Virus record (IMG/VR): IMGVR_UViG_648276647_000020
Direction: 5' to 3' (one strand)
Source of the DNA: a virus
Lineage: Duplodnaviria > Heunggongvirae > Uroviricota > Caudoviricetes
Length of the DNA: 30,723 bases
The notes beneath the pieces are model-generated. The model did no database searches. It had not been told where the DNA came from and saw only the letters and a list, made by a program, of their open reading frames with translations. Position 1 is the stretch's first letter. Each line of letters starts with the position of its first letter. Positions 3,081 through 16,849 of this stretch are shown piece by piece. The position numbers and the translations under genes were made by a program.

Positions 3081-3095
3081 GAAGGAGAAGAAATT

Positions 3096-3323
3096 ATGAT
3101 GGCCCGAAATATAAAAATGGCAACGGATGCGCAGAACTGGTTACAGGCGCGCGGGAGTCATGTAAATGAATCATATCTCGGCGTGGCGCGTCCGATTCTT
3201 GAAATCACTTACCCACCGGTGGAACTGGTAAAAAACGCGGTCAGAATTATGGAGCATAAGTCCGGGGTGGCCCGTTCTGTATGGACGGCCCGTCTTAATG
3301 GTTGCCAGATTATCTGGAGATAA
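3096..3323 (+). CDS. small early protein of unknown function (at the position of Mu kil)
   Basis: 75 aa ORF with strong SD gaaggagaag 6-8 nt upstream. First gene after B; function inferred only from synteny. Confidence 0.55.
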
Positions 3324-3325
3324 CG

Positions 3326-3556
3326 ATGTGTATTAAAGCTGAAAAATATATTGAATGGGTTAAACACTGTCAGTGCCACGGGGTGCCGCTGACGACATAT
3401 AAATGCCCCGGATGTGGTGAACAGATTATGACGCAATGCTCACCCGAAAAGGAAATTCGGGATTCCCTGACATGTTGTCCGTGGTGCAGCGCAGTTTTCT
3501 TTAAACAGGTAAAAGGCGCGAAGGTAAAAGCCAGCGCGGTTATTCAGAATCAATAA
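3326..3556 (+). CDS. Cys-rich putative zinc-ribbon small protein
   Basis: 76 aa from ATG 3326 (SD ggaga 3315-3319); the ORF track's earlier start lies inside the previous gene. Motifs CQCHG, CPGCG, CCPWC. Confidence 0.55.
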   Translation: MCIKAEKYIEWVKHCQCHGVPLTTYKCPGCGEQIMTQCSPEKEIRDSLTCCPWCSAVFFKQVKGAKVKASAVIQNQ

Positions 3557-3567
3557 GGTGAAACAAA

Positions 3568-3831
3568 ATGGCAAAAGTAATTATTGAAATTAAAAATACA
3601 GTATCTGGAATTAAAGGACGGAATTTGCGCACCAGCATTGCGGTGGACGGTAGTGCGGAACTGGACGGTGATGAGGGTACACTTGCTGGCATGGTGGCGT
3701 TACTGGTGCTTAATAAAAGCCAGAAAATAATTAATGAGTCAGCCCATGAAGCTATTGAGATTTTGAAAAACGATGGTGTCATCACCGGTGTCCGTGTCAC
3801 TGAAATGGCTGTTGAAAAAACATGCCACTGA
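3568..3831 (+). CDS. hypothetical early protein
   Basis: 87 aa ORF, SD aaggtg upstream, AT-rich codon usage like neighbouring early ORFs. Confidence 0.55.
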   Translation: MAKVIIEIKNTVSGIKGRNLRTSIAVDGSAELDGDEGTLAGMVALLVLNKSQKIINESAHEAIEILKNDGVITGVRVTEMAVEKTCH

Positions 3832-3845
3832 AAGGAACGCTGACA

Positions 3846-4265
3846 ATGAACGTCAAAATCCGAAATGAAATTCAGGCATTAATCCGAATTCAGGAACGCA
3901 ATAACAACGGTGGTGAATTACGCGAGTTTATTTGCGCCCGGAAAGTTGATGGTTATGGTGAAAAGACTTACCTGATTACTTTCGACCATTACAGCATCTG
4001 TGCGCGTTATTGTGGCGAAAGCATATCCCGCGCCATTGCGTCTGGCGATGCGTTTAACGTGGATTTATGGGAGTACGTCATGGACCGTGAATACATCTGT
4101 GTATCAGACCCGAAAGCCCGTGAAATGTGGCAGCGTATCTGGCGCGATTACCGGTTAATGGCAAAAGGCTGGGCGCGCTGCTGTTATTCCTCGCTTGCCC
4201 TGAAAGCGGTTCAGTTATCGCTGCGGCATATTCCGGCATCACTGCGCGAGCCTCTGCTGTACTGA
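3846..4265 (+). CDS. hypothetical early protein (Cys-containing)
   Basis: 140 aa from internal ATG 3846 (MNVKIRNE...). Alternative start ATG 3822 overlaps the previous stop. No recognisable motif. Confidence 0.5.
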   Translation: MNVKIRNEIQALIRIQERNNNGGELREFICARKVDGYGEKTYLITFDHYSICARYCGESISRAIASGDAFNVDLWEYVMDREYICVSDPKAREMWQRIWRDYRLMAKGWARCCYSSLALKAVQLSLRHIPASLREPLLY

Positions 4266-4277
4266 ATGGTGGCTGAC

Positions 4278-4565
4278 ATGAAGTGTAATCGTAAGCGCTG
4301 GTCACGCGAAGACCGGGAATTTATCGAAGCCAACGTCGGGAAAATGACCGTTGAAGAAATGGCGGAAAAACTGAAAGTCGCCACAACCGCCCTCCGGGCA
4401 CATGCCAGAAGGCACGGAATATCATTGTGTGTATACCGAATCAGTGAACACGACAAATATTTATGTCGTGAACTTTATAAAGAAGGGCTGGATATTCATG
4501 TCATTGCCCGAAAGATGGAATTAAGCAATCGAGCTGTATCCAGCATTGTATACAGCGGATATTAA
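4278..4565 (+). CDS. small putative HTH DNA-binding protein
   Basis: About 96 aa; GGTGG SD 8 nt before ATG 4278 (alternative ATG 4266). Two helix-turn-helix-like stretches (MTVEEMAEKLKVATTALRAHARRHGI; LDIHVIARKMELSNRAVSSIVYSG). Confidence 0.5.
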   Translation: MKCNRKRWSREDREFIEANVGKMTVEEMAEKLKVATTALRAHARRHGISLCVYRISEHDKYLCRELYKEGLDIHVIARKMELSNRAVSSIVYSGY

Positions 4566-4584
4566 TTAACAGGAGCTTTAATTT

Positions 4585-5109
4585 ATGGCTAAACCAGCAA
4601 AACGTATCAAAAGTGCCGCAGCGGCTTATGTTCCACAAAACCGCGATGCGGTGATTACCGATATTAAACGCATCGGGGACTTACAGCGCGAAGCATCACG
4701 TCTGGAAACGGAAATGAATGATGCCATCGCGGAAATTACGGAGAAATTTGCAGCCCGGATTGCACCGATTAAAACCGATATTGAAACCCTTTCAAAAGGC
4801 GTTCAGGGATGGTGTGAAGCGAACCGCGACGAACTGACGAACGGCGGCAAAGTGAAGACGGCGAATCTTGTCACCGGTGATGTATCGTGGCGGGTCCGTC
4901 CACCATCAGTAAGTATTCGTGGTATGGATGCAGTGATGGAAACGCTGGAGCGTCTTGGCCTGCAACGCTTTATTCGCACGAAGCAGGAAATCAACAAGGA
5001 AGCGATTTTACTGGAACCGAAAGCGGTCGCAGGCGTTGCCGGAATTACAGTTAAATCAGGCATTGAGGATTTTTCTATTATTCCATTTGAACAGGAAGCC
5101 GGTATTTAA
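4585..5109 (+). CDS. gam: Gam-like host-nuclease inhibitor (DNA-end binding)
   Basis: 174 aa; N-terminus MAKPAKRIKSAAAAYVPQNRDAVITDIKRIGDLQREASRLE... resembles Mu Gam as I recall it. SD aggag upstream. Confidence 0.85.
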   Translation: MAKPAKRIKSAAAAYVPQNRDAVITDIKRIGDLQREASRLETEMNDAIAEITEKFAARIAPIKTDIETLSKGVQGWCEANRDELTNGGKVKTANLVTGDVSWRVRPPSVSIRGMDAVMETLERLGLQRFIRTKQEINKEAILLEPKAVAGVAGITVKSGIEDFSIIPFEQEAGI

Positions 5110-5207
5110 TACCACCATTAATATTTAATTAATTCACATTCTTTTAATTATGGCGCGATACGTCAGGGGATTGCTCGCGCCTGAAACAGATTACTGAGGA
5201 ATAAAAC

Positions 5208-5738
5208 ATGGTTGATGCAAAAATTCTGAATGGTGTCAGCACATTATTACGGGCTTTCGGACGCCTGACCTGCGGAGTTCTGGCTGAAAAAATGAATATG
5301 CTGCCCTCGTCAATGGTGTATTTCCTGCGTGATGCGGTTGATGCCGGAGTGCTCACCGAATGCAACGGATTTTATGACGTTCCGCGCCCGCGTCCGACGC
5401 CGCCTGTAAGACGAAACGCAACTGAGCAGCCTGCTGTTGATGATGCGGTGTGGTGCAACTGGCGTCGCTCATTACCCTGGGTGGAAGGTAATACCATCCC
5501 CGCGCTGGCAAAAGAGTTTGCGACGGGCGTGCTGACCTGTGAATCCGTTCACATCGTTGCAGAAGTGGACAACAGAATGTGCGAACAGGGTATGCCCCGT
5601 TTTGTGATGGCTTATATCGATATCCGGCTGGGGCGTTTTATTTGCAGTTCAAGCGCCTGGAATATCACCGACCATGTACTGCGTTATCTCATTCTTGATT
5701 GTTCTCCGGTTCCCGCAGCGGTGCAGGAGATGGCGTGA
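5208..5738 (+). CDS. hypothetical early protein, possible N-terminal winged-helix
   Basis: 176 aa, SD gagga upstream. Stop overlaps the next start (TGATG at 5736-5740). Confidence 0.55.
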   Translation: MVDAKILNGVSTLLRAFGRLTCGVLAEKMNMLPSSMVYFLRDAVDAGVLTECNGFYDVPRPRPTPPVRRNATEQPAVDDAVWCNWRRSLPWVEGNTIPALAKEFATGVLTCESVHIVAEVDNRMCEQGMPRFVMAYIDIRLGRFICSSSAWNITDHVLRYLILDCSPVPAAVQEMA

Positions 5739-6268
5739 TGTTTTTTAAAACGTCAAATCCCGCAGCACTGCTGGCATGGGACCAGTTTATGGCGGACTGC
5801 CTGAAACTACGCGAAGAAGCCCGCCATCTTGAGAAGGTTCTGGGCTGTGGTTGCCGGTCAGTATTCAGCACAGGTATTGGTGGGCGTCATTTTCATGGCG
5901 TGAATTTTCCGGGGAATGAGCGCCCCTTCTCGCGGGAGCTGTGGACCGTACAACGGCCCGCATCAGGTAACAGTTGCAGGCCCAGAACTTCGCGGATACC
6001 TGCTCATCTCAGGGAGCAGGCAAGAGAGCTGGCGAAAATATGGCAGGAGAATATTCCGGTCACTTACGCCCGCACAGACGCTCTTTTACCCGCACTGGGA
6101 CTGGATTTCAGCGCAACAATATTCGGGCCGCTCCAGTGGTTCCGTGTTGGTGATGTGATTTACGTCATGACGGGGATGACACCCGCACAAGGCCGCATGA
6201 CTGAAATCCTTTCTGACGAATTTATCCGGGCGCAAAAACAGGCGGAGGTAAACAATGGAAAACAATAA
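5738..6268 (+). CDS. hypothetical early protein
   Basis: 176 aa from ATG 5738, translationally coupled to the upstream ORF. A central low-complexity stretch and an overlapping alternative-frame ORF (5916-6158) leave open a frameshifted gene. Confidence 0.45.
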   Translation: MFFKTSNPAALLAWDQFMADCLKLREEARHLEKVLGCGCRSVFSTGIGGRHFHGVNFPGNERPFSRELWTVQRPASGNSCRPRTSRIPAHLREQARELAKIWQENIPVTYARTDALLPALGLDFSATIFGPLQWFRVGDVIYVMTGMTPAQGRMTEILSDEFIRAQKQAEVNNGKQ

Positions 6269-6437
6269 AACATCGTATTCGTGGCTGGGGAAATTCACCA
6301 CGGTGAAACAGGAATGCCCGACCTGCGGTAATGAATCCCCTGAATATCTGAAAGAGTGCCCTCATTGTGGCGGGCTGAAATGCAACCACTGCGATATGGG
6401 CGATGACACAGCGTGCATGAATTGTGAAGGTGAATAA
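6255..6437 (+). CDS. putative zinc-ribbon small protein
   Basis: 60 aa with four CxxC pairs (CPTC, CPHC, CNHC, CMNC). SD ggagg 6 nt upstream. Confidence 0.55.
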   Translation: MENNKTSYSWLGKFTTVKQECPTCGNESPEYLKECPHCGGLKCNHCDMGDDTACMNCEGE

Positions 6438-6438
6438 T

Positions 6439-6741
6439 ATGAATAATGAAACTAAATTTACTCCCCTTAATATTGATAACGTCATGGCTGAAAAAGGGAT
6501 GCTGGAACGTGTTCGCGCTATCGTTGAATATGGTATTAAGCATAATCTCACCGCCAGAGAAGTCCGTGACATTATCAACCGCGAAATGAATCGTCTGGAA
6601 ACAGTAGTGGCACTGCAAAATGAAACAGCCCGCGAGGAGTACATCCGCCGCAGGCTGGGGCTATCAGACCAGGATATTGTTACTGACGCTCATGTATTTG
6701 AGGCTTTTGAGATCCGTCAGCATCTGGGCCTTACGAACTGA
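6439..6741 (+). CDS. hypothetical early protein
   Basis: 100 aa from ATG 6439 with SD aaggtg; the track's 6424 start is a GTG just upstream. Confidence 0.5.
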   Translation: MNNETKFTPLNIDNVMAEKGMLERVRAIVEYGIKHNLTAREVRDIINREMNRLETVVALQNETAREEYIRRRLGLSDQDIVTDAHVFEAFEIRQHLGLTN

Positions 6742-6792
6742 TGTGTAAATTCAGGCGGTGTTGCAGCACCGCCTCTTTCCGGAGGTACGATC

Positions 6793-7344
6793 ATGAGTCG
6801 CACATCCCTGATTAAATTAATCCATGTCGCCCGTCGGGAGCTACAACTCGACGACGACACTTACCGCGCTTTTCTGATGCAGAAAACGGGCAAAATCAGT
6901 TGCCGCGAGCTGACGGTAACGCAACTGGAACAGGTGCTCGATGCCATGAAAGAACGCGGCTTTAAGAAGCTGAATAAACATCCACGTCGCCGCTTTAAGG
7001 GGCATGTCACGCCCCGCGAGAAGGTATACAAAGTCTGGCAGCAGATGGCAGAAGACGGTTTTATTACCGATGGCGGTGATGTGGCGCTGGATAAATATGT
7101 TCAGCGCCTGACGGCGAAACGTAATGGCGGACAGGGTGTTTCCACGCTGGCGTGGTGCCATGGCGACACGCTGCTGACAGTCCTCGAAACACTCAAGCAG
7201 TGGCACATCCGCTGTATTCGTGAAGCCTTTTCCCGTCACGGGCTTCCGTTGCCGGTCAGTCCGTCCGGGCGTGAACTGCGCGGCTATGACGCCATGACGG
7301 CGGCTTATGCCCATGCCAGAAAGACACGGAGGATGGCACAATGA
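6793..7344 (+). CDS. gemA: GemA-like (Mu gp16) regulatory protein
   Basis: 183 aa, N-terminus MSRTSLIKLIHVARRELQLDDDTYRAFLMQ.... Position immediately upstream of and overlapping mor (ATGA). SD ggagg. Confidence 0.7.
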   Translation: MSRTSLIKLIHVARRELQLDDDTYRAFLMQKTGKISCRELTVTQLEQVLDAMKERGFKKLNKHPRRRFKGHVTPREKVYKVWQQMAEDGFITDGGDVALDKYVQRLTAKRNGGQGVSTLAWCHGDTLLTVLETLKQWHIRCIREAFSRHGLPLPVSPSGRELRGYDAMTAAYAHARKTRRMAQ

Positions 7345-7730
7345 CGGAAGATTTATTTGGTGATTTGCAGGATGACACCATCCTGGCACATCTTGACAAT
7401 CCCGCCGAGGATACGTCACGCTTTCCGGCACTGCTGGCGGAGCTGAACGATTTACTGCGCGGGGAATTGTCCCGGCTGGGTGTTGATCCTGCCCATTCAC
7501 TGGAGATTGTTGTGGCTATCTGTAAGCATCTGGGCGGCGGTCAGGTCTACATTCCACGCGGTCAGGTTCTGGACTCGCTGATTCGGGATTTGCGTATCTG
7601 GAATGATTTTAACGGTCGCAACGTCAGCGAACTGACCACCCGTTATGGTGTCACTTTCAATACGGTTTACAAGGCCATTCGCCGGATGCGACGGCTGAAA
7701 TACCGCCAGTACCAGCCCTCACTTCTGTAA
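7341..7730 (+). CDS. mor: Mor-like middle-operon transcription activator
   Basis: 129 aa. C-terminal HTH region (YIPRGQVLDSLIRDLRIWNDFNGRNVSELTTRYGVTFNTVYKAIRR) is paralogous to the C protein at 8151. Followed by a terminator. Confidence 0.85.
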   Translation: MTEDLFGDLQDDTILAHLDNPAEDTSRFPALLAELNDLLRGELSRLGVDPAHSLEIVVAICKHLGGGQVYIPRGQVLDSLIRDLRIWNDFNGRNVSELTTRYGVTFNTVYKAIRRMRRLKYRQYQPSLL

Positions 7731-7737
7731 ACAGTAA

Positions 7738-7761
7738 AGCCGGTTAATCCGGCTTTTTTTA
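7738..7761 (+). terminator. rho-independent terminator after mor (end of early operon)
   Basis: Perfect hairpin AAAGCCGG (7738-7744) / loop TTAAT / CCGGCTTT (7750-7757), followed by a T-run to 7761. Confidence 0.8.
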
Positions 7762-7807
7762 CGTCCTCAATATCCTGTGATGAATAACCGTACCGGGGGA
7801 AATCATC

Positions 7808-8038
7808 ATGGGTAAAGGCTGGAATGCATCCTTTCATCTTGGCAGACGTGAGCGGCTGCGTCAGGAGGTTTTACACCGTGTCGCCGGTGGGCCACGTCCT
7901 GCGCCCCGCGACTATACCGGTCATGATGGCACCCACGGAAGTTATTACATGAAAGGCTGGCAGTCGGTTGATATGCCGGAAATTCTTCACCACTGCCAAC
8001 GTTATAAGGAAAAATATCATGTACAGAAAATTCAGTGA
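7808..8038 (+). CDS. hypothetical small protein between mor and C
   Basis: 76 aa ORF with SD ggggga upstream. Overlapped by minus-strand ORFs, so coding status is uncertain. Confidence 0.4.
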   Translation: MGKGWNASFHLGRRERLRQEVLHRVAGGPRPAPRDYTGHDGTHGSYYMKGWQSVDMPEILHHCQRYKEKYHVQKIQ

Positions 8039-8150
8039 TGAATGTTTCGGGCCGTCCACGCTGATTAATGCGATAAAAGTGATTGCCCTTGTGGTTCTGA
8101 TAACCATCAGTGCCGTGGTGTATCTTTCTGTCTGTTAACCGGGGGAAAAT

Positions 8151-8573
8151 ATGCAGCATGATTTATTTGAACACGATCCGGCAATTCGCCAGTTAATCGG
8201 ACATATTGATAACATCCCGGCCCCGGAACTGGAATCACGCTGGCCCCGTTCGGTGGTTGATCTGATTGATGTTCTGGAAAACGAACTGAAACGCCAGAAC
8301 GTCAGCAATCCCCGTGAGCTTGCCCGTAAACAGGCCGTTGCCCTGTCCTGTTTTCTGGGCGGGCGGCAGTTTTATATCCCCTGTGGCGATACTATCCTGA
8401 CCGCGTTACGCGACGATTTGCTTTACTGCCAGTTCAATGGTCGTAACATGGAAGAACTGCGTCGCCAGTACCGCCTGTCCCAGCCGCAGATCTACCAGAT
8501 TATTGCCCGCCAGAGAAAGCTGCATACACGGCGTCATCAGCCTGATCTGTTCTCACCTGAAAGCCCAAAATAA
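8151..8573 (+). CDS. C: C-like late-gene transcription activator (Mor/C family)
   Basis: 140 aa; YIPCGDTILTALRDDLLYCQFNGRNMEELRRQYRLSQPQIYQIIAR parallels the Mor HTH region. SD ggggga. Confidence 0.85.
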   Translation: MQHDLFEHDPAIRQLIGHIDNIPAPELESRWPRSVVDLIDVLENELKRQNVSNPRELARKQAVALSCFLGGRQFYIPCGDTILTALRDDLLYCQFNGRNMEELRRQYRLSQPQIYQIIARQRKLHTRRHQPDLFSPESPK

Positions 8574-8594
8574 CCGGCATCCTGCCGGTTATTT
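8568..8594 (+). terminator. hairpin/terminator overlapping the C stop codon
   Basis: ATAACCGGCA / loop TCC / TGCCGGTTAT perfect inverted repeat (8570-8592) followed by ATTT. The U-tract is short, so it may be a weak terminator or processing hairpin. Confidence 0.55.
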
Positions 8595-8664
8595 CCTGTC
8601 ACCATAATCCCGCACCTGTCACCTGATTTTTTAGACTGCCATCAGAGCATTTTTTCAGGGAAGC
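8595..8664 (+). promoter_or_regulatory. candidate C-dependent late promoter upstream of lys
   Basis: Motif CATAATCCCGCACCT (8603-8617) shares CATAA(T/C)CCC and CCCGCACCT with the region upstream of gene I (16783-16807). Possible -10 TAGACT at 8632-8637. Confidence 0.45.
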
Positions 8665-9183
8665 ATGATGGCGGGGATACCAAAAAAACTGAAAGCCGCA
8701 CTGCTGGCGGCAACGATTGCCGGTGGTGGTATGGGTGGTTATCAGGAAATGACCCGTCAGTCTCTGATCCATCTGGAAAATATCGCTTATCTGCCTTACC
8801 GCGATATTGCCGGTGTGCTTACGGTCTGTGTGGGACATACCGGGCCGGATATCGAAATGCGCCGTTACAGCCATGCGGAGTGTATGGCTCTCCTCGCCAG
8901 TGATTTAAAACCGGTTTATGCGGCAATCGATCGTCTTGTCAGGGTGCCGCTGACGCCATATCAGAAAACGGCGCTGGCAACGTTTATTTTCAACACCGGT
9001 GTTACCGCATTCAGTAAATCAACGCTGCTGAAAAAACTCAATGCCGGTGATTACGCCGGAGCGCGTGACCAGATGGCCCGCTGGGTGTTTGCCGCAGGCC
9101 ATAAATGGAAAGGACTGATGAACCGTCGCGAAGTGGAAATGGCAATCTGGAATATCAGGGGGGCGGATGACCTTCGCCAGTAA
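8665..9183 (+). CDS. lys: SAR endolysin, T4-lysozyme-like (GH24) muramidase
   Basis: 172 aa. N-terminal Ala/Gly-rich weakly hydrophobic segment (KKLKAALLAATIAGGGMGG) typical of a signal-anchor-release domain. Catalytic E-x8-D-x5-T spacing (E38, D47, T53). Confidence 0.85.
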   Translation: MMAGIPKKLKAALLAATIAGGGMGGYQEMTRQSLIHLENIAYLPYRDIAGVLTVCVGHTGPDIEMRRYSHAECMALLASDLKPVYAAIDRLVRVPLTPYQKTALATFIFNTGVTAFSKSTLLKKLNAGDYAGARDQMARWVFAAGHKWKGLMNRREVEMAIWNIRGADDLRQ

Positions 9184-9553
9184 AAGTTTACTGCTGGCAG
9201 CCGTGTTTACCGCCGTTCTGTCCGGGGTGTTGTGGCACAGGCTGGACAGCACCCGCCACGATAACCAGACGCTGCGCCGTGAATTACAGACGGAGCAACA
9301 GGCCCGCAACACGGCTGAATGGTTGTTACACGGTCAGGAACAGACGATGCAGGTATTTTCCGCTATCCGTGCCGCAAATCGTGCCGCACGGCTGGCAGAT
9401 GAGACAGAACATCATGATGCAAAAGAAAAAATTACAACCGCCATTACTGGTGACAATTGCAGCACTCGTCCTGTGCCTGCCGTTGCTGCTGACAGGTTGC
9501 GGGAACTCGAAAAACGCACCCGTGCCATCGGTGGTGATCCTGCCCGAAACTGA
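9167..9553 (+). CDS. i-spanin (Rz-like)
   Basis: 128 aa with N-terminal TM helix (LLLAAVFTAVLSGVLW) then charged coiled-coil-like periplasmic domain. Directly after the endolysin, overlapping its stop. Confidence 0.7.
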   Translation: MTFASKSLLLAAVFTAVLSGVLWHRLDSTRHDNQTLRRELQTEQQARNTAEWLLHGQEQTMQVFSAIRAANRAARLADETEHHDAKEKITTAITGDNCSTRPVPAVAADRLRELEKRTRAIGGDPARN

Positions 9554-9755
9554 TACAGAACTGACAGAAGCAACGCCCGTTCCGCCCATGCCACAGCCCC
9601 TGACGTGGGGAGCATCCCTTCTCTGGAATGCTGACCTGTTGATGGCGCTCGGGCAGTGCAACCGCGACAAGGCATCAGTCCGGGAACAGGAGATCCGAAG
9701 GAAAGAAATTTATGAACGAAGACCAGAACCGGGCGGTGGCGCTGCTGCTCGCTGA
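9414..9755 (+). CDS. o-spanin (Rz1-like lipoprotein), overlapped architecture
   Basis: Starts at ATGATG 9414 in the +1 frame inside the i-spanin gene. Signal peptide with lipobox LLLTGC, then a Pro-rich mature region. The 3' extent (114 aa) is longer than typical and uncertain. Confidence 0.6.
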   Translation: MMQKKKLQPPLLVTIAALVLCLPLLLTGCGNSKNAPVPSVVILPETDTELTEATPVPPMPQPLTWGASLLWNADLLMALGQCNRDKASVREQEIRRKEIYERRPEPGGGAAAR

Positions 9756-9906
9756 ACTCTGGCAGGGGGATACCCGTGATATTCCCCGCCCGGCGGCGTA
9801 TGACCCGCCTGTATTGTGTGCCGGTTGCTGTCGTGAGCTGCGGCCTGATGTGCTGAGACAGCAGCCGATGGCGAACTACTGCCACTGGTGCCGTGGAGCA
9901 GAATAA
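9712..9906 (+). CDS. hypothetical small Cys-containing protein
   Basis: 64 aa. Stop overlaps the start of the next gene (TAATG at 9904-9908), suggesting coupling. Overlaps the o-spanin 3' end. Confidence 0.45.
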   Translation: MNEDQNRAVALLLAELWQGDTRDIPRPAAYDPPVLCAGCCRELRPDVLRQQPMANYCHWCRGAE

Positions 9907-10205
9907 TGGATTTGATTTCAGTTTTAGCGTTATGGCCTTACCTGTTGCCTGTTGTGGCCGGTGGGGCCGTCTGGGCGATGCGTCGTAGTTTTGCCAGCAC
10001 CGAGCGTGTGGAGCGTCTTGAAAACCGGATGACCGAAATGGAAACCCGCTACGCCAGCATCCCTGGCACAGAAGATGTACACGAAATGCGCCTGCGTATT
10101 GCAGAGCTGTCCGGCGATATCCGGGTGCTGTCCCAGCGGGTGCAGTCATTTTCCCATCAACTGGAGCTGCTGCTTGAAAACGCAGTAAACCGGAGTAATT
10201 CATGA
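9906..10205 (+). CDS. gp25-like membrane protein (candidate releasin)
   Basis: 100 aa from ATG 9906 (SD ggagcaga). N-terminal TM helix (LISVLALWPYLLPVVAGGAVWA) then coiled-coil-like region. Sits in the lysis cassette at the Mu gp25 position. Confidence 0.6.
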   Translation: MDLISVLALWPYLLPVVAGGAVWAMRRSFASTERVERLENRMTEMETRYASIPGTEDVHEMRLRIAELSGDIRVLSQRVQSFSHQLELLLENAVNRSNS

Positions 10206-10492
10206 TTAACGATATTCTGACTGAAGACCGTCGTCTGGTCATCCTGCGTTCCCTGATGGACTGCAATAACGAAGCCAACGAATCCATCCTTCAGGACTGT
10301 CTGGATGCATACGGACACAACGTTTCCCGCGATGTGGTTCGCGGCCAGATTGACTGGCTGGCAGAGCAGCAACTGGTCACCGTGGAAAACCTGCGCGGCT
10401 TTTATGTCGTAACGCTGACCTCCCGAGGTCAGGATGTGGCGGAAGGCCGCGCCCGCGTTGCCGGTGTCAAGCGTCCGCGTCCCCGTGCATGA
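10202..10492 (+). CDS. Mu gp26-like protein
   Basis: 96 aa, ATGA overlap with the upstream gene, SD ggag. Function inferred from synteny only. Confidence 0.6.
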   Translation: MINDILTEDRRLVILRSLMDCNNEANESILQDCLDAYGHNVSRDVVRGQIDWLAEQQLVTVENLRGFYVVTLTSRGQDVAEGRARVAGVKRPRPRA

Positions 10493-10503
10493 CAGGAGGC
10501 GTG

Positions 10504-11079
10504 ATGGACAGGAAAACACGGGGCCGGGCTTCAAAAGTGGATTTACTGCCGGAAAACGTACGTAAAACGCTGCATGAAATGCTGCGTGATAAGGCGATCC
10601 CACAGGCCCGCATTCTGGAAGAAATTAACGCACTGATTGAAGACGCAGGCCTGCCGGATGAGATGAAACTCTCCCGTTCCGGTCTGAACCGTTACGCGAC
10701 GAACGTCGAGCAGGTAGGCCATAACCTGCGACAGATGCGTGAAATGACGTCAGCACTGACCGCAGAACTTGGCGACAAGCCAATGGGCGAAACCACAAAG
10801 CTGATTCTGGAAATGGCCCGCAGCCAGCTTTTTAAGGCCATGATGCGGCAAATCGAAAACCCGGAATCTGACGTGGATATTGACCTGCTGAAAAATGCCA
10901 TGCTGGCGGCACAGCGTCTGGAATCCACGGCAATGTCCAGCCACCGGCGCGAGAAAGAAATCCGCCAGGCATTCGCAGAAGAAGCAGCAAACGCCGTCAG
11001 TGAAGAACTGCGCGGGCAGGATGGTATCAGCGAAGAGCTGGAGCAGCGTATCCGTGATGTACTGCTGGGGAAAGCGTAG
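10504..11079 (+). CDS. Mu gp27-like protein (putative small terminase/DNA-binding subunit)
   Basis: Perfect SD AGGAGG 7 nt before ATG 10504; the track's 10489 start overlaps the previous stop. Basic N-terminus, acidic C-terminus. Immediately upstream of the large-terminase region. Confidence 0.65.
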   Translation: MDRKTRGRASKVDLLPENVRKTLHEMLRDKAIPQARILEEINALIEDAGLPDEMKLSRSGLNRYATNVEQVGHNLRQMREMTSALTAELGDKPMGETTKLILEMARSQLFKAMMRQIENPESDVDIDLLKNAMLAAQRLESTAMSSHRREKEIRQAFAEEAANAVSEELRGQDGISEELEQRIRDVLLGKA

Positions 11080-11089
11080 GCGTTACGTT

Positions 11090-11260
11090 ATGAAAAATGA
11101 TTACAAAGCACAGCTAATCAGTGCCCATAAAAAAGCCTTCAGGATTGCAACATTGTCTGATGTCCGGTTGATACACCAGATTCGGGATGTGCTTGTTCAG
11201 GCTATGGCTTCAGGCAATTCATGGCATACGACCATAAAACAACTAAGGACTTTGTCCTGA
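11090..11260 (+). CDS. hypothetical small protein (islet ORF 1)
   Basis: 56 aa from ATG 11090, weak RBS, lower-GC sequence than the flanking late genes. Confidence 0.35.
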   Translation: MKNDYKAQLISAHKKAFRIATLSDVRLIHQIRDVLVQAMASGNSWHTTIKQLRTLS

Positions 11261-11270
11261 GGAGATGAAA

Positions 11271-11468
11271 ATGGCGGATGAAAAAACTAAATACAAGACC
11301 TCAACAGAACTGGCAATGGTACTGTGGCCCGTTGTGAAAAAACAGATTGATGAGGATCCGGAAGTCCATCCACGAATTATGGCCGAGGCCCTGTATCTGG
11401 TTATGCAACTGGTGGATGGCCCGGCTACAGCGGGCCAGGTGATCAGTTATTCTCAGGTTCACCGATAA
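11271..11468 (+). CDS. hypothetical small protein (islet ORF 2)
   Basis: 65 aa from ATG 11271 with GGAG 7 nt upstream (alternative ATG 11265). Confidence 0.4.
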   Translation: MADEKTKYKTSTELAMVLWPVVKKQIDEDPEVHPRIMAEALYLVMQLVDGPATAGQVISYSQVHR

Positions 11469-11637
11469 CGGTTTTTTCAACAATTTTGTAGAAAGCATTA
11501 AATGTGTTTTCTTCCACTGATGCTTTTCCTGAACAGGAGATCTCAAGTGAAACGCCTTTTGCCTGGGTGGATTCAAACATTTGCACGGCTATCCGGGCAA
11601 TTTCGATTTTTTGATCAATGGTCAGTTTCTCTTTCAT
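11443..11637 (-). CDS. hypothetical small protein on the opposite strand (candidate moron)
   Basis: 64 aa (MKEKLTIDQKIEIARIAVQMFESTQAKGVSLEISCSGKASVEENTFNAFYKIVEKTVIGEPENN). Minus-strand ATG at 11635-11637 is preceded by AAGAGG SD at 5 nt spacing. About 38% GC by my manual count over 11461-11700, versus about 52% in the adjacent terminase start. Confidence 0.45.
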   Translation of the reverse strand: MKEKLTIDQKIEIARIAVQMFESTQAKGVSLEISCSGKASVEENTFNAFYKIVEKTVIGEPENN

Positions 11638-11692
11638 AAAAACCTCTTTTTTACTGATTAATGCCTGAAAATTTATACCGGATTTTTCGCCC

Positions 11693-13348
11693 ATGAGCAC
11701 CAGAGAAAGCAAACTTAAAGCCCTTCATGCGCCCCGCAAAATCGACCTGCGTAAGGAAGCCGGACTGCTCGGCGTGAATATCGTGACCGATATCGGTGAA
11801 GCACAGCCCCGCAATGAACCGGTTTTCCTGGGCTATCAGCGCCGCTGGTTTGAGGATGAAAGCCAGATTTGTATCGCTGAAAAATCCCGTCGTACCGGTC
11901 TGACATGGGCTGAAGCGGGCCGCAATGTCATGACGGCCGCAAAGCCGAAGCGTCGCGGTGGTCGCAACGTCTTTTATGTGGGTTCCCGTCAGGAAATGGC
12001 GCTGGAATACATCGCCGCCTGTGCCCTGTTTGCCCGCGCCTTTAACCAGCTGGCAAAGGCTGATGTCTGGGAGCAGACCTTCTGGGACAGCGATAAAAAA
12101 GAAGAAATCCTCACTTATATGATCCGCTTTCCGAACAGCGGATTTAAGATACAGGCGCTGTCAAGCCGCCCGTCTAACCTGCGTGGTTTGCAGGGGGACG
12201 TGGTGATTGATGAGGCGGCATTTCATGAAGCCCTGGACGAACTCCTGAAAGCGGCCTTTGCACTAAACATGTGGGGTGCCAGCGTGCGCATCATATCGAC
12301 ACATAACGGCGTCGATAATTTGTTTAATCAGTACATTCAGGATGCGCGCGAGGGGCGCAAGGATTACAGCGTTCACCGCATCACGCTGGATGATGCCATC
12401 GCTGACGGGTTGTACCGACGTATCTGTTACGTCACGAATCAGCCGTGGTCGCCGGAAGCGGAAAAAGCCTGGCGTGATGGCCTGTACCGGAATGCGCCGA
12501 ATAAAGAGAGTGCTGACGAGGAATACGGCTGCATTCCTAAAAAATCCGGGGGCGCTTATCTGTCACGCGTGCTGATTGAAGCCGCCATGACGCCAGCGCG
12601 GGATATCCCGGTTCTGCGTTTTGAAGCCCCGGACGATTTTGAATCGCTGACACCACAAATGCGCCACGACATCGTTCAGGACTGGTGTGAACAGGAGCTG
12701 CTCCCGTTGCTCGATGCGCTGTCGCCGCTCAATAAACACGTACTGGGCGAAGACTTTGCGCGCCGTGGCGACCTGACGGTGTTTGTGCCGCTTGCCATCA
12801 CGCCTGACTTACGCAAACGCGAATGTTTCCGCGTGGAGCTGCGTAATGTGACCTATGACCAGCAGCGACAAATCCTTTTATTCATTCTGTCCCGTTTGCC
12901 CCGTTTTACCGGCGCTGCATTTGATGCCACCGGTAACGGCGGTTATCTGGCAGAGGCCGCCCGTCTGATTTATGGCCCGGAGATGATCGACTGCATCAGT
13001 CTGACCCCCGCCTGGTATCAGGAGTGGATGCCAAAACTGAAAGGCGAGTTTGAAGCGCAGAACATCACGATTGCCCGGCATCAGACCACACTTGATGACC
13101 TGCTTCATATCAAGGTGGATAAGGGGATCCCGCAGATTGACAAGGGGCGCACAAAAGATGAAGGCGGTAAAGGCCGACGACATGGCGACTTTGCCGTAGC
13201 GCTCTGTATGGCTGTCAGGGCGTCTTATATGAATGGTTTTGTTATCGACGAGGACAGCATACAGGCGCTGCCACCACGCCACCGTGGTGATGATGTTGAT
13301 AACGATGATTTTGATGATTATCACCAGTTTGAACGAGGGGGCTGGTAA
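11693..13348 (+). CDS. terminase large subunit (Mu gp28-like)
   Basis: 551 aa ORF directly upstream of and coupled to the portal gene (TAATG overlap); size and position as in Mu-like phages. Confidence 0.8.
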   Translation: MSTRESKLKALHAPRKIDLRKEAGLLGVNIVTDIGEAQPRNEPVFLGYQRRWFEDESQICIAEKSRRTGLTWAEAGRNVMTAAKPKRRGGRNVFYVGSRQEMALEYIAACALFARAFNQLAKADVWEQTFWDSDKKEEILTYMIRFPNSGFKIQALSSRPSNLRGLQGDVVIDEAAFHEALDELLKAAFALNMWGASVRIISTHNGVDNLFNQYIQDAREGRKDYSVHRITLDDAIADGLYRRICYVTNQPWSPEAEKAWRDGLYRNAPNKESADEEYGCIPKKSGGAYLSRVLIEAAMTPARDIPVLRFEAPDDFESLTPQMRHDIVQDWCEQELLPLLDALSPLNKHVLGEDFARRGDLTVFVPLAITPDLRKRECFRVELRNVTYDQQRQILLFILSRLPRFTGAAFDATGNGGYLAEAARLIYGPEMIDCISLTPAWYQEWMPKLKGEFEAQNITIARHQTTLDDLLHIKVDKGIPQIDKGRTKDEGGKGRRHGDFAVALCMAVRASYMNGFVIDEDSIQALPPRHRGDDVDNDDFDDYHQFERGGW

Positions 13349-14886
13349 TGGGCCGTATTCTGGATATTTCCGGGCAGCCGTTTGATTTTGACGATGAAAT
13401 GCAGACCCGCAGCGATGAGCTGGCAATGGTCATGAAGCGCACGCAGGAGCATCCTTCCAGTGGTGTGACGCCGAACCGGGCCGCGCAGATGCTGCGTGAT
13501 GCCGAACGCGGTGATCTGACAGCACAGGCTGACCTGGCCTTTGATATGGAAGAAAAGGACACCCACCTTTTTTCCGAACTGAGCAAGCGCCGCCTTGCCA
13601 TTCAGGCGCTGGAATGGCGCATCGCTCCGGCACGTGATGCCAGCGCACAGGAGAAAAAAGACGCCGACATGCTGAATGAATATCTGCATGATGCGGCGTG
13701 GTTTGAAGATGCCCTGTTTGATGCCGGTGATGCCATTCTCAAGGGTTATTCCATGCAGGAGATTGAATGGGGCTGGCTGGACAAAATGCGCGTGCCGGTG
13801 GCGCTGCATCATCGCGATCCGGCGCTGTTCTGTGCGAACCCCGACAATCTGAACGAATTACGCCTGCGTGATGCGTCTTATCACGGGCTGGAGCTGCAAC
13901 CGTTCGGCTGGTTTATGCACCGGGCCAAATCCCGTACCGGGTATGTCGGCACCAATGGCCTTGTGCGCACGCTTATCTGGCCTTTTATTTTTAAAAACTA
14001 TTCCGTGCGTGATTTTGCAGAGTTTCTGGAAATTTACGGACTCCCCATGCGCGTTGGTAAATATCCGACCGGCTCAACGAACCGCGAGAAAGCCACGCTG
14101 ATGCAGGCCGTGATGGATATCGGGCGACGTGCCGGTGGCATTATTCCGATGGGGATGACGCTGGATTTTCAGAGCGCCGCAGATGGTCAGTCAGACCCTT
14201 TTATGGCGATGGTTGGCTGGGCAGAAAAAGCGATTTCAAAAGCCATTCTGGGCGGCACCCTGACCACAGAGGCCGGCGATAAAGGTGCACGGTCGCTGGG
14301 TGAAGTGCATGATGAAGTTCGCCGGGAAATCCGTAACGCGGATGTGGGCCAGCTTGCCCGCAGTATTAACCGTGACCTGATTTATCCCCTGCTGGCACTG
14401 AACAGTGACAGCGCCATTGATATTAACCGCCTGCCGGGCATTGTGTTTGATACCAGTGAAGCGGGTGATATTACGGCACTGTCTGACGCCATTCCGAAAC
14501 TGGCGGCGGGAATGCGTATTCCGGTCTCCTGGATACAGGAAAAACTCCATATTCCACAGCCGGTCGGTGACGAAGCCGTGTTTACTGTACAACCGGTTGT
14601 CCCGGATAACGGTCCGCAGAAAGAGGCCGCATTATCCGCTGAAGATATCCCGCAGGAGGATGATATCGACCGGATGGGCGTCTCACCGGAAGACTGGCAG
14701 CTTTCGGTTGATCCCCTGCTGAAACCCGTCATTTTTTCTGTGCTGAAAGATGGCCCGGAAGCCGCCATGAACAAAGCTGCTTCATTATATCCGCAGATGG
14801 ATGATGCAGAACTTATCGACATGCTGACCCGTGCCATTTTTGTTGCCGATATATGGGGGCGTCTGGATGCCGCAGCAGACCATTGA
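13348..14886 (+). CDS. portal protein (Mu gp29-like)
   Basis: 512 aa with strong SD gaggggg. Position between terminase and the F-like head morphogenesis gene. Confidence 0.8.
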   Translation: MGRILDISGQPFDFDDEMQTRSDELAMVMKRTQEHPSSGVTPNRAAQMLRDAERGDLTAQADLAFDMEEKDTHLFSELSKRRLAIQALEWRIAPARDASAQEKKDADMLNEYLHDAAWFEDALFDAGDAILKGYSMQEIEWGWLDKMRVPVALHHRDPALFCANPDNLNELRLRDASYHGLELQPFGWFMHRAKSRTGYVGTNGLVRTLIWPFIFKNYSVRDFAEFLEIYGLPMRVGKYPTGSTNREKATLMQAVMDIGRRAGGIIPMGMTLDFQSAADGQSDPFMAMVGWAEKAISKAILGGTLTTEAGDKGARSLGEVHDEVRREIRNADVGQLARSINRDLIYPLLALNSDSAIDINRLPGIVFDTSEAGDITALSDAIPKLAAGMRIPVSWIQEKLHIPQPVGDEAVFTVQPVVPDNGPQKEAALSAEDIPQEDDIDRMGVSPEDWQLSVDPLLKPVIFSVLKDGPEAAMNKAASLYPQMDDAELIDMLTRAIFVADIWGRLDAAADH

Positions 14887-16186
14887 TCTGGCGTATGCCG
14901 CACGCCTCCCGCCAAAGGAGGCTGTCGCGTATTTCCGCGCCAAAGGCTACAACATCACCTGGAACTGGTACGAACAACTGGCAGACGCGCACGCCCGCGC
15001 CTTTACCGTTGCCAAAGCCACCCGGATGGATGTCCTGACCACAATCCGTGAGGAAGTGGAGCGGGCTGTCAGTGAAGGCATCACCCGTGAGGAATTTACC
15101 CGCACACTGGCCCCCCGGCTGCAAAAACTCGGATGGTGGGGAAAACAAATCATCGTGGATGCAGACGGAAACGCGAAGGTAATCGAGCTGGGCAGTCCGC
15201 GTCGTCTGGCAACCATTTATAACGTCAATACCCGTACGGCGTATGGGGCAGGACGTTATGCGCAGATGATGAATACCGCCGATTTGTACCCGTACTGGCA
15301 GTACGTTGCCGTTATGGATGGCAGAACACGCCCGGAACATGCGCGGCTGCACAATATGGTTTTCCGGTATGACGACATTTTCTGGCAGACGCATTACCCG
15401 CCCAATGGCTGGAACTGCCGCTGTCGCGTCCGGGCGCTGTCTGCGGCCCGCATGAAAGAACTGGGGCTACAGGTCAGTTATGGTGCGTCATTCATGAATA
15501 CCCGCGAAGTGGATGCCGGTACGGATGAAAGCACCGGAGAGATTTTCCGCACATCGTCAACCACATTTGACAACGGTCGGGTAAAAATGACGCCGGATGT
15601 GGGCTGGTCATATAACCCCGGTTCGGCGGCATTTGGTACGGATCAGGCACTGATTCGAAAACTGGTGGAAATTCGCGACGCGCAGTTGCGTGAGCAGGTT
15701 GTGCAGACGCTGAATAACAGCCGGGAGCGTCAGCTTGCTTTTTCCCTCTGGCTTAAACACCTGGCAGGATCACGTCAGACCGGTCATGAAATCCGGGCGC
15801 TGGGTTTTATGACGGAATCGGTAGCTGAAGCCGTACATCAGCGCACCGGGAATATGCCAGCCCGTCTGCTTGTGATGAACGGGAAAAGTCTGGCGACCAC
15901 TGCTGATGCCGCCCTGAAACCGGAAGATTTACAGCGTCTGCCGTCGCTGATGGCAAAACCACAGGCGGTATTGTGGGACAGGGAGAACCACCAGTTGCTG
16001 TATGTTGTGGCAACCCGTGACGGCACGGCCCGGATTGTGGTCAGAACATCACAGACAGTCGGCAGGCAGAATGACCGGGCAGATGTGCTGGTCAGTATCA
16101 GCCGCGTATCTGCACAGTCGCTTGAAGCCGCGATTGCTGACGGGATGATTGACGTACTGGAGGGGCATGTGGAGGTGAATAAGTGA
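14867..16186 (+). CDS. head morphogenesis protein F (Mu gp30-like)
   Basis: About 439 aa from ATG 14867 (MPQQTIDLAYAARLPPKEAVAYFRAKGYNITWNWYEQ...), overlapping the portal 3' end. Fits minor head protein families found after portal genes. Confidence 0.75.
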   Translation: MPQQTIDLAYAARLPPKEAVAYFRAKGYNITWNWYEQLADAHARAFTVAKATRMDVLTTIREEVERAVSEGITREEFTRTLAPRLQKLGWWGKQIIVDADGNAKVIELGSPRRLATIYNVNTRTAYGAGRYAQMMNTADLYPYWQYVAVMDGRTRPEHARLHNMVFRYDDIFWQTHYPPNGWNCRCRVRALSAARMKELGLQVSYGASFMNTREVDAGTDESTGEIFRTSSTTFDNGRVKMTPDVGWSYNPGSAAFGTDQALIRKLVEIRDAQLREQVVQTLNNSRERQLAFSLWLKHLAGSRQTGHEIRALGFMTESVAEAVHQRTGNMPARLLVMNGKSLATTADAALKPEDLQRLPSLMAKPQAVLWDRENHQLLYVVATRDGTARIVVRTSQTVGRQNDRADVLVSISRVSAQSLEAAIADGMIDVLEGHVEVNK

Positions 16187-16653: not shown

Positions 16654-16849
16654 ACGGAATCAGGCATAAAATCAGCCGCACAGATTTTTTAAAACGCGCC
16701 ACGGGATTTTTAAACCGGTATTTAACGGTGTATGAATCCCGTTTTATCTTCCTTCCACTTTCTTTCTCCAGTACTCAAATAGCATAACCCCAGATTTTCC
16801 CGCACCTCCCGCAAACTGACTGCTCACAAACCATGATGAGCAGCAGGAC
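16654..16849 (+). promoter_or_regulatory. 196-bp noncoding G-I intergenic region: candidate late promoter and, by position, candidate strong gyrase site
   Basis: Longest noncoding gap in the morphogenesis block. Inverted repeat ACGGGATT (16701-16708) / AATCCCGT (16735-16742). Motifs CATAACCCC (16783-16791) and CCCGCACCT (16799-16807) shared with the lys upstream region. Confidence 0.5.

Follow-up and report, generated by a model that had tools for sequence, protein, structure and literature searches.

A predicted Mu-type holin-less lysis cassette in a Mu-like transposable phage

Introduction

Positions 8665–10205 of a 30 723-nucleotide stretch of phage DNA (IMG/VR record IMGVR_UViG_648276647_000020; the whole stretch is referred to below as the window) encode an endolysin with a signal-anchor-release (SAR) type of N-terminus, and raise the question of how such an enzyme is set free for lysis if no holin accompanies it. 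An initial annotation made from the sequence proposed that the locus combines this endolysin with overlapped spanins and a releasin, gp25, and that it has no holin. Phage Mu, in which a holin-less lysis system has been characterized experimentally, has been described as the first known holin-less tailed phage, in which a protein of a new kind sets the time of lysis at the step of SAR-endolysin release (Chamblee et al., 2022, mBio 13:e00813-22; PMC9239132). Judged by its sequence, the segment 8665–10205 is an ordinary copy of this known Mu-type cassette, already annotated in Mu. We assign a probability of roughly 0.93 to the reading that it is a Muvirus late lysis cassette consisting of a SAR endolysin, the releasin gp25 and a spanin pair, with no holin. 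For the window phage the evidence comprises its gene content and architecture, its motifs and topology signals, and how closely it matches Mu; the experimental phenotypes cited are those of Mu (Chamblee et al., 2022).

Results and discussion

Phage identity and organization of the cassette

The window derives from a Mu-like transposable phage that is collinear with Mu and approximately 98.5% identical to it in a genome comparison. The A, B, gemA, mor and portal genes are present, and all 43 Mu genes that were compared in the window are intact. The segment 8665–10205 is occupied by the Mu late genes 22, 23, 23.1, 24 and 25 (Table 1), which are alike in set, order and overlaps in the two phages, with 16 nucleotide differences over 1541 nt. 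The products are 97.7% (gp22), 98.4% (gp23), 99.1% (gp23.1), 98.4% (gp24) and 100% (gp25) identical to those of Mu, with the substitutions V15A, V22M, M42L and D77A in gp22, G21V and H48N in gp23, I46T in gp23.1 and G40C in gp24. Lys6/Lys7, Glu37/Asp46/Thr52, the lipobox Cys29 and Arg26-Arg27 of the Mu proteins are all kept. The curated Mu entry (GenBank AF083977.1; Mu_22 to Mu_25 and Mu_55) carries the labels SAR endolysin, i-spanin, o-spanin and releasin. The initial annotation had suggested an alignment with Mu gp22, gp23, gp23.1 and gp25; at 97.7–100% identity, its reading as a whole corresponds to the published Mu model.

Table 1. Features of the lysis region and its upstream flank (window coordinates).
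Feature	Position	Strand	Basis or comparison
Gene 19 absence junction	8018..8022	+	Window 6739-8022 = Mu 8178-9462; window 8018-11075 = Mu 9830-12887
Gene 20, middle-operon protein, 39 aa, single transmembrane domain (TMD), placed outside the lysis mechanism	8019..8138	+	100% identical to Mu gp20
Stem-loop terminator after late activator gene C, AACCGGCAtcctGCCGGTT + T-rich tail	8571..8594	+	Identical to Mu 10383-10406, annotated terminator in AF083977.1
Plys, C-activated late promoter driving the cassette	8591..8657	+	Collinear (offset 1812) with Mu 10403-10469, 'Late promoter activated by C'
Gene 22, SAR endolysin, GH24 muramidase, 171 aa	8668..9183	+	PF00959, aligned catalytic residues
Gene 23, i-spanin, 128 aa, N-terminal TMD, helical periplasmic domain, single Cys98	9167..9553	+	PHROG 214
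Gene 23.1, o-spanin lipoprotein precursor, 113 aa (85 aa mature)	9414..9755	+	Lipobox, PF23793
Gene 24, 64 aa, phrog_3260 (unknown function)	9712..9906	+	C36xxC39...C57xxC60
Gene 25, predicted releasin, DUF2730, 99 aa, single TMD N-out/C-in, cytoplasmic helical hairpin	9906..10205	+	PF10805, identity to Mu gp25

Two positions differ from Mu within the 97 nt (8571–8667) that span the terminator and Plys; the stem-loop of the terminator can be recognized from the sequence. A σ70 promoter scan yielded no site at Plys; this is as expected, since Plys depends on the activator C, and the scan result is uninformative.

The SAR endolysin gp22

An in-frame ATG at 8665 lies one codon 5′ of the gene 22 start at 8668; the curated Mu entry uses the second ATG. 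gp22 matches the Pfam family PF00959 (Phage_lysozyme) over residues 37–157 (E = 1.3e-37, 129.3 bits against a cut-off of 22.3) and also falls in the PHROG endolysin family. The protein can be aligned from end to end, the SAR region too, with 3HDE and with RrrD (4ZPU), at E values of about 1e-37, and has in common with the R endolysin of phage 21 (R21) and E. coli RrrD (PDB entries 3HDE, 3HDF and 4ZPU) the GH24 fold family, the spacing of the triad and an N-terminal SAR segment. The motif E-x8-D-x5-T is located at Glu37, Asp46 and Thr52, and occurs anywhere in the protein in 1.5% of shuffles of gp22. These residues share alignment columns, as counted from the alignment, with Glu35, Asp44 and Thr50 of the phage 21 enzyme (3HDE_A), which we take to be the catalytic residues of R21. 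The T4-lysozyme catalytic spacing noted initially is in this way matched by the catalytic GH24 residues in a SAR endolysin of known structure, and AF083977.1 annotates Mu gp22 with 'catalytic residues E37, D46, T52'.

The N-terminus of gp22 (MAGIPKKLKAALLAATIAGGGMGGY) contains Lys6, Lys7 and Lys9 and is weakly hydrophobic and rich in Gly and Ala; residues 6–25 (KKLKAALLAATIAGGGMGGY) include five Ala, five Gly and one Thr. The best 19-residue hydropathy window anywhere in the protein reaches 1.05, below the TMD cut-off of 1.6, and the mean for residues 10–25 (1.19) also stays under it. A Gly/Ala-rich, weakly hydrophobic segment following basic residues is the SAR-type N-terminus that had been proposed. 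Mu gp22 is membrane-tethered and is released by the S21-68 pinholin of phage 21, and alleles with Lys-to-Ala and Lys-to-Arg changes have shown that Lys6 and Lys7 confer its dependence on gp25 (Chamblee et al., 2022). By analogy with this 97.7% identical protein, the gp22 of the window phage is probably held as an inactive membrane-tethered form that a pinholin or depolarization could release. Phage 21 uses a SAR endolysin together with the pinholin S21-68, whereas the Mu type dispenses with a holin, depends on a releasin and has Lys6/Lys7 in a SAR segment rich in Gly.

Alternatively, the endolysin may have drifted through V22M, M42L, D77A and a less hydrophobic SAR segment, and would then be either released independently of gp25 or impaired, making the cassette unlike that of Mu. 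These three substitutions, the first of which falls among the consecutive Gly residues of the SAR segment, are absent from Mu, D108 and the nearest E. coli prophage. The mean Kyte–Doolittle value of residues 10–25 is 1.19 compared with 1.48 in Mu, and this lower hydropathy of the SAR segment, together with V15A and the three substitutions, means that release kinetics could differ from those of Mu. Five of the six nucleotide differences between the cassette and that of the nearest E. coli prophage are nonsynonymous; the lysozyme of E. coli prophage RM8082 is frameshifted, so decay does happen in related prophages. However, six differences are too few for inferring relaxed selection, and positions 42 and 77 are not conserved, being Ile and Asn in the phage 21 enzyme. 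All of the reading frames are intact, Lys6/Lys7 and the catalytic triad are kept, and all other compared Mu genes in the window are full length. We consider a drifted endolysin to be very improbable and favor a gp22 that is held and released as in Mu.

The releasin gp25

In addition to the gene 25 start at 9906, the list of open reading frames gives an in-frame GTG start further 5′, at 9888. gp25 matches PF10805 (DUF2730) with 50.4 bits (cut-off 24.9; E = 2.5e-13). Its TMD (approximately residues 4–22; KD19 1.84) is followed by Arg26-Arg27 and a 74-residue C-terminal part, and the cytoplasmic portion contains 12 acidic residues, 11 basic residues and nine Ser. We infer the N-out/C-in orientation from the positive-inside rule, as was done for Mu (Chamblee et al., 2022). 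An AlphaFold model contains two helices (residues 10–49 and 56–97) with a mean pLDDT of 79. The N-terminal transmembrane helix and coiled coil of the initial description are recognizable as this TMD and a two-helix cytoplasmic domain. Gene 25 lies four genes downstream of gene 22, within the five-gene distance that characterizes releasins of transposable phages, and homologues of gp25 extend to Mu-like phages of Pseudoalteromonas, Pasteurella and Klebsiella.

A 25::cam mutant and two-plasmid co-expression have established that in Mu the SAR endolysin is not released on time unless gp25 is present, and the Mu proteins gp22 and gp25 are by themselves enough to bring about lysis (Chamblee et al., 2022). 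The gp25 of the window phage, being identical to the Mu protein, would act as a releasin in the same manner; the role proposed initially is consistent with this identity, with the DUF2730 signature and with the experimental model in Mu (Chamblee et al., 2022).

As a small late membrane protein that is encoded in the lysis cassette and required for timely lysis, gp25 might instead be an atypical holin or pinholin with a single TMD that makes membrane lesions rather than acting as a releasin on the cytoplasmic tail of the endolysin. Its ability to aid the release of unrelated SAR endolysins is indeed pinholin-like (Chamblee et al., 2022). Expression of gp25, however, leaves growth unaffected and causes no lethality after DNP, and either of the single changes K6A and K7A in gp22 abolishes gp25 dependence (Chamblee et al., 2022), which points to an effect on the N-terminus of the endolysin and not on the membrane potential. 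gp25 is, moreover, nearly all cytoplasmic, with four periplasmic residues according to Chamblee et al. (2022) and a TMD that begins at about residue 4 here. A lesion-forming gp25 is thus hardly credible, and we retain its assignment as a releasin.

Search for a holin

The whole window was covered by a six-frame hydropathy scan of 343 open reading frames of at least 30 aa, in which TMDs were called by a simple threshold and not by a trained predictor. No plus-strand open reading frame in a gene frame has two or more TMDs; the proteins of real genes with a single TMD or a signal are gp20, gp23, gp23.1 and gp25. All open reading frames with two hydrophobic segments belong to the minus strand; they lie antisense to conserved genes, namely those of transposase A, gp18/gp20 and the large terminase and an early gene, and were rejected as non-genes. 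One of the minus-strand frames (7871–8107) spans the gene 19 deletion junction and therefore cannot be conserved in Mu. Pfam and PHROGs searches with ten proteins (7808–10492 and the insert at 11.1–11.7 kb) returned no holin family, the remaining proteins of the window being identified by identity to Mu genes only. A PADLOC scan of gp18′, gp20, gp24 and the three insert open reading frames gave no hits. The initial remark that no canonical holin is evident nearby extends to the whole window, in which no protein with two or three TMDs was found. At the left end, c and ner fall outside it, as do the distal tail fibre, gin, com and mom at the right end, and a holin gene at these phage ends would be beyond the reach of the search.

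The location of these ends leaves room for a cryptic holin, either gp20 or the product of a gene outside the window, that depolarizes the membrane and so releases the SAR endolysin, with gp25 merely accessory. gp20 is the only other membrane protein near the cassette; it is small, has a strongly hydrophobic TMD (KD19 2.77) and is encoded about 530 nt upstream of gene 22. As quoted by Chamblee et al. (2022), Samanta et al. proposed gp19 and gp20 as a holin–antiholin pair. Mu carries gene 19, which encodes its only protein with several TMDs, a four-TMD protein once proposed as a holin, whereas the window phage lacks it: the gene 20 ATG occupies the position of the gene 19 ATG of Mu, and tblastn found no gp19-like sequence anywhere in the window better than E = 0.24. 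gp19, the proposed partner of gp20, is likewise missing from eight related isolates, and those named as lacking gene 19 are SfMu, PhiR68_1 and vB_YpM_3, 5, 6, 23 and Tongde. In Mu, gp20 was shown to lack holin behaviour; gp19, gp20 and gp25, singly or together, caused no lethality after DNP, and lysis was delayed rather than triggered by DNP (Chamblee et al., 2022). The cryptic-holin explanation has thus already been largely refuted for Mu, and with no holin-family match among the ten proteins searched we regard it as extremely unlikely for the window phage.

The Muvirus phages D108, SfMu, PhiR68_1 and Yersinia vB_YpM_3, 5, 6, 23 and Tongde are 97.9–99.1% identical to the window over positions 8000–11000. 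The arrangement without gene 19 is contiguous in SfMu, PhiR68_1, vB_YpM_3, vB_YpM_23 and Tongde, as in the window; D108 and Mu_3F6, unlike the window phage, retain the gene. Lysis of cultures has been reported for SfMu, vB_YpM_3 and vB_YpM_23. That isolates lacking gene 19 lyse their hosts agrees independently with the holin-less conclusion.

The spanin subunits gp23 and gp23.1

gp23 is assigned to PHROG 214 ('Rz-like spanin') with E = 9e-35, and its Pfam match is sub-threshold only (DUF2570, 17.9 bits versus a cut-off of 26.6). Its TMD signal has a KD15 of 2.53 at residue 8; the N-in/C-out topology of the i-spanin is taken from the Mu annotation (AF083977.1). Gene 23.1 begins 247 nt into gene 23 in the +1 frame; the two genes share 140 nt, and gene 23.1 continues for 202 nt beyond the end of gene 23. 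A PROSITE-style pattern locates the gp23.1 lipobox, VLCLPLLLTGC, at residues 19–29, with the lipobox Cys29 followed by Gly30 at the +2 position, so that there is no Asp at +2. The mature part contains ten Pro, and residues 24–92 match PF23793 (LysC; E = 4e-14, 52.7 bits against a cut-off of 27). The overlapped architecture, the lipobox and the +1 frame inside the i-spanin gene are all as first described. PGAP starts the o-spanin at residue 41, and the resulting product has no lipobox.

P2 LysB/LysC likewise combines an overlapped gene architecture with an outer-membrane lipoprotein subunit of the LysC family; the window o-spanin differs in a further tail of about 21 aa, the coding sequence of which overlaps gene 24. 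The initial annotation had regarded the o-spanin frame as unusually long at 114 aa. The actual length, 113 aa, is the same in Mu (Mu_55) and D108, and is shorter than that of the i-spanin. This fits the general pattern: in 489 of 528 two-component pairs the i-spanin exceeds its partner in length, with summed periplasmic domains of 62 to 300 residues (PMC6139136), compared with about 190 residues for the window pair. The equal length in Mu and D108 and this survey rule out the o-spanin length as an anomaly. In Mu, amber alleles of 23 and 23.1 give spherical cells and no lysis when the outer membrane is stabilized, and the 23.1 defect is complemented by lambda RzRz1 (Chamblee et al., 2022).

Gene 24

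Gene 24 lies inside the segment 8665–10205 and was absent from its initial description. It overlaps the end of gene 23.1 by 44 nt, and one base of its stop codon is shared with the gene 25 ATG. gp24 has no Pfam match, its homologues occur in Muvirus phages only, and its substitution G40C is private to the window phage. No role for genes 24–26 is mentioned in a PNAS study of late transcription in Mu from 2026.

We rejected gp24 as a conserved partner of the releasin, since its homologues are confined to Muvirus whereas those of gp25 are more widespread; in addition, gp22 and gp25 are enough in Mu. The CxxC...CxxC motif, the restriction to Muvirus, the position between the o-spanin and the releasin and the overlap of its stop with the gene 25 ATG could also suggest that gp24, instead of being a bystander, influences when lysis occurs, for instance by regulating the releasin, a role that we consider decidedly unlikely. 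In a lesser variant of this idea, the private SAR-segment changes V15A and V22M may retune release kinetics in the window phage.

Proposed lysis pathway

With a releasin and no holin, lysis would proceed as follows. The late activator C would switch on Plys. gp22 would be exported and would remain inactive in the inner membrane through its weakly hydrophobic SAR segment, locked by Lys6/Lys7 on the cytoplasmic side. gp25, as a type I (N-out, C-in) membrane-tethered cytoplasmic protein, would be needed for normally timed exit of the SAR segment from the bilayer, after which the freed gp22 would refold and degrade the peptidoglycan. The gp23/gp23.1 complex, with its inner-membrane subunit and outer-membrane lipoprotein, would then disrupt the outer membrane. 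A holin would take no part.

Conclusions

The cassette adds no new biology, as its proteins are the same as those of Mu and gp25 is identical. Its practical value concerns annotation: in the databases, most entries for such phages and prophages continue to label these genes 'hypothetical' or 'DUF2730', and those of the Muvirus relatives name the cassette genes merely 'lysozyme', 'Rz' or 'hypothetical protein'. For the genus Muvirus, the increment is modest: the window phage and most sequenced Muvirus isolates are naturally without gene 19, and several of these isolates are reported to lyse their hosts.

Organization of the lysis cassette and the endolysin gp22

The lysis cassette consists of five genes that overlap or abut and map base for base onto Mu genes 22, 23, 23.1 (Mu_55), 24 and 25 with an offset of 1812. 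It is the system of Chamblee et al. (2022; PMC9239132), and its reading as a holin-less arrangement of SAR (signal-anchor-release) endolysin, spanins and releasin is supported. The system is already known, being published and annotated under the same names in GenBank AF083977.1. The genes listed in the initial annotation are present, with two corrections: gene 24 also lies within the range, and the curated Mu endolysin start is the second ATG, at 8668 rather than 8665.

The N-terminus of gp22 (MAGIPKKLKAALLAATIAGGGMGGY) carries three lysines followed by a weakly hydrophobic stretch (five Ala, five Gly and one Thr in residues 6–25) that scores under the ordinary hydropathy threshold for a transmembrane domain (TMD). 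These features read as a SAR signature, as had been proposed. The T4-lysozyme catalytic spacing E-x8-D-x5-T noted initially is located at E37/D46/T52, in a protein with a clear lysozyme-family match; the same pattern occurs in 1.5% of shuffles of gp22. Among solved structures, the phage 21 SAR endolysin (3HDE, E=4e-37) aligns over the full length, including the N-terminal segment, as does E. coli RrrD (4ZPU). E37, D46 and T52 fall in the columns of E35, D44 and T50 of the 3HDE chain, which settles the check on GH24 catalytic alignment that had been suggested.

Features of the lysis cassette, the terminase-region insert and the blocks collinear with Mu
Feature	Window position	Strand	Mu position	Remarks
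gp22, SAR endolysin	8668-9183	+		171 aa; PF00959 Phage_lysozyme E=1.3e-37
gp23, i-spanin	9167-9553	+		128 aa; PHROG Rz-like spanin E=9e-35, N-terminal TMD
gp23.1, o-spanin	9414-9755	+		113 aa; PF23793 (LysC, Rz1-like) E=4e-14, lipobox
Gene 24	9712-9906	+		64 aa; no Pfam family found
gp25, releasin	9906-10205	+		99 aa; PF10805 DUF2730 above curated cut-off
Insert small ORF	roughly 11090-11260	+
Insert small ORF	roughly 11265-11468	+
Insert small ORF	roughly 11443-11712	-		opposite to late operon, moron-like
Collinear block	2013-6742		3229-7958	local blastn
Collinear block	6739-8022		8178-9462	local blastn
Collinear block	8018-11075		9830-12887	local blastn
Collinear block	11693-30256		12899-31468	local blastn

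Spanins

The start of gene 23.1 lies 247 nt inside gene 23, in the +1 frame; the two genes share 140 nt, and the last 202 nt of 23.1 lie past the end of gene 23. This is the 'overlapped' spanin architecture, and the o-spanin assignment made earlier holds, with a lipobox (VLCLPLLLTGC; Cys29, Gly at +2) and a family match. The accompanying remark that the o-spanin is unusually long (114 aa) does not: its length is the same in the window, Mu and D108, and is below that of gp23, an order of length shared by 489 of 528 two-component spanins (PMC6139136). The summed periplasmic domains of gp23 and gp23.1 (about 190 residues) lie inside the range of 62–300 for spanin pairs (PMC6139136), and an anomalous length is ruled out.

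Mu-type o-spanins are systematically under-annotated. In E. coli prophages RefSeq/PGAP calls the protein ('LysC') from residue 41, omitting the signal peptide and Cys29 (for example, positions 3370–3591 of the strain A20 prophage locus, corresponding to window 9534–9755), and in other records the gene is wholly unannotated.

Releasin, gene 24 and the Mu mechanism

gp25 has a TMD at about residues 4–22 followed by R26R27, and the 74 residues of its C-terminal part include 12 acidic, 11 basic and nine Ser residues. A single-sequence AlphaFold model (mean pLDDT 79) contains helices 10–49 and 56–97, which fit the 'TM helix plus coiled coil' description as a helical hairpin. The 10205 end of the ORF stands, and its true start is 9906, the GTG at 9888 being merely the longest-ORF start.

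The releasin role cited initially matches the published system. In Mu, gp22 is a SAR endolysin releasable by the phage 21 pinholin; co-expression of gp22 and gp25 causes lysis, and neither lyses by itself. A Mu 25::cam lysogen continues to grow and does not undergo bulk lysis until about 3 h, compared with about 40 min for the wild type. The gp25 requirement is abolished by gp22 K6A or K7A and kept with K-to-R changes, and gp25 likewise promotes release of unrelated SAR endolysins; as possible molecular mechanisms the authors consider protease, charge-neutralization and transient-channel models. Amber alleles of 23 or 23.1 give the spherical-cell spanin phenotype, the 23.1 defect being complemented by lambda RzRz1 (all PMC9239132).

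Since gp25 is identical to that of Mu, gp22 retains K6, K7, K9 and the catalytic triad, and the region of the late promoter Plys is near-identical, we have high confidence that the window cassette would work by this mechanism; its steps are carried over by near-identity from experiments in Mu only.

The gene 24 product contains C36xxC39 and C57xxC60, possibly a zinc ribbon; the private G40C gives CAGCC in the window. The first 44 nt of the gene coincide with the end of 23.1, and one base of its stop codon also belongs to the gene 25 start. It is not core to the mechanism, because its homologues are found in Muvirus only, whereas those of gp25 extend to more distant Mu-like phages, and because gp22 and gp25 suffice in Mu (PMC9239132). 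A modulatory role in lysis is very improbable.

Differences from Mu and from E. coli prophages

Over its 1541 nt the cassette carries 16 differences from Mu, and the 97 nt spanning the Plys region (8591–8657 by collinearity) carry two. The substitutions are V15A (common to D108), V22M, M42L and D77A in gp22, G21V and H48N in gp23, I46T in gp23.1 and G40C in gp24. Against the prophage of E. coli strain A20, the closest complete one (99.6%), the cassette has six differences, and the five that are nonsynonymous (V22M, M42L, D77A, H48N and G40C) are private changes; six is too few for any inference on selection. Positions 42 and 77 of gp22 are not conserved relative to the phage 21 enzyme. V15A and V22M lower the mean hydropathy of the SAR segment from 1.48 (Mu) to 1.19 and could in principle alter release kinetics, to which we assign a low probability because K6 and K7 are kept. 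In the E. coli RM8082 prophage locus the endolysin gene (794–1308) is annotated as frameshifted, and this prophage may be lysis-defective.

Genomic context

In a megablast search of 50,697 phage records, window 8000–11000 matched Mu-group phages only, the nearest being D108 (99.1%) and Mu (98.8%), with PhiR68_1, SfMu and five Yersinia pestis Mu-like phages at 97.9–98.5%. Identity to Mu is about 97–98.7% over all collinear blocks. Collinearity, together with full-length, stop-free counterparts of all 43 Mu proteins compared, marks the window as an apparently intact Muvirus genome without its two ends.

At the left, the transposase A ORF is open, and its first two thirds (1–2012) lack a megablast-level match to Mu, D108 or SfMu. 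Window 583–2100 matches Yersinia phages vB_YpM_5/6 at 94.8% identity and Mu-like inserts carried by Stx-converting phages at about 81%; the gene is a mosaic allele. At 6739–6742, Mu 7959–8177 is absent (small gene Mu_54 and the start of the annotated semi-early promoter stretch, Mu 8151–8217) and gemA follows directly. No similarity to Mu remains at the right (30257–30723), beyond a point shortly into tail-fibre gene S (Mu 31468), and the distal part of the fibre, the determinant of host range, is of a type unlike that of Mu.

The gene for the small terminase, gp27, is separated from that for the large one, gp28, by a 617-bp insertion (11076–11692), where Mu has 7 nt. Among 5426 complete genomes of E. 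coli, only RM8082 has the entire insert, annotated there as three hypothetical proteins; its first ~416 nt are 88% identical to Yersinia phage Tongde and its first 205 nt are common to nine other E. coli prophages. One ORF belongs to the function-unannotated family phrog_21398, and Pfam and PADLOC searches of the ORFs gave no match.

Absence of a holin and of gene 19

Hydropathy analysis of 343 six-frame ORFs of at least 30 aa across the window found no protein with two or more TMDs in any real gene, and no holin family was present among Pfam or PHROG hits of ten proteins from 7808–10492 and the terminase-region insert, in agreement with the initial view that no canonical holin lies near the endolysin. 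In genuine frames, gp20, gp23, gp23.1 and gp25 are the membrane or signal-bearing proteins, to which gp22 adds its SAR segment as a sub-threshold case.

Mu gene 19, encoding a four-TMD protein, is precisely missing upstream of the cassette (junction 8018–8022; Mu 9463–9829 absent). The gene 20 ATG occupies the site of the gene 19 ATG, and the altered 3' end of gene 18 overlaps gene 20. Samanta et al., as quoted in PMC9239132, put forward gp19 and gp20 as a holin–antiholin pair. Dinitrophenol produced no lethal triggering with Mu gp19, gp20 and gp25, singly or combined, and it retards Mu lysis with no advance (PMC9239132). By tblastn against all phage records, gp19 is confined to Mu, D108 and Mu_3F6, and the contiguous gene-19-less arrangement is also found in five Muvirus isolates (SfMu, PhiR68_1, vB_YpM_3, vB_YpM_23 and Tongde); host lysis is reported for SfMu and the Yersinia phages (PMC4406740, PMC10434027).

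The window contributes only a near-identical copy of the Mu cassette and a natural gene-19-less background. Together the gene-19-less lytic relatives provide, not a discovery, but a small corroboration from natural variation of the published conclusion that gp19 does not act in lysis.
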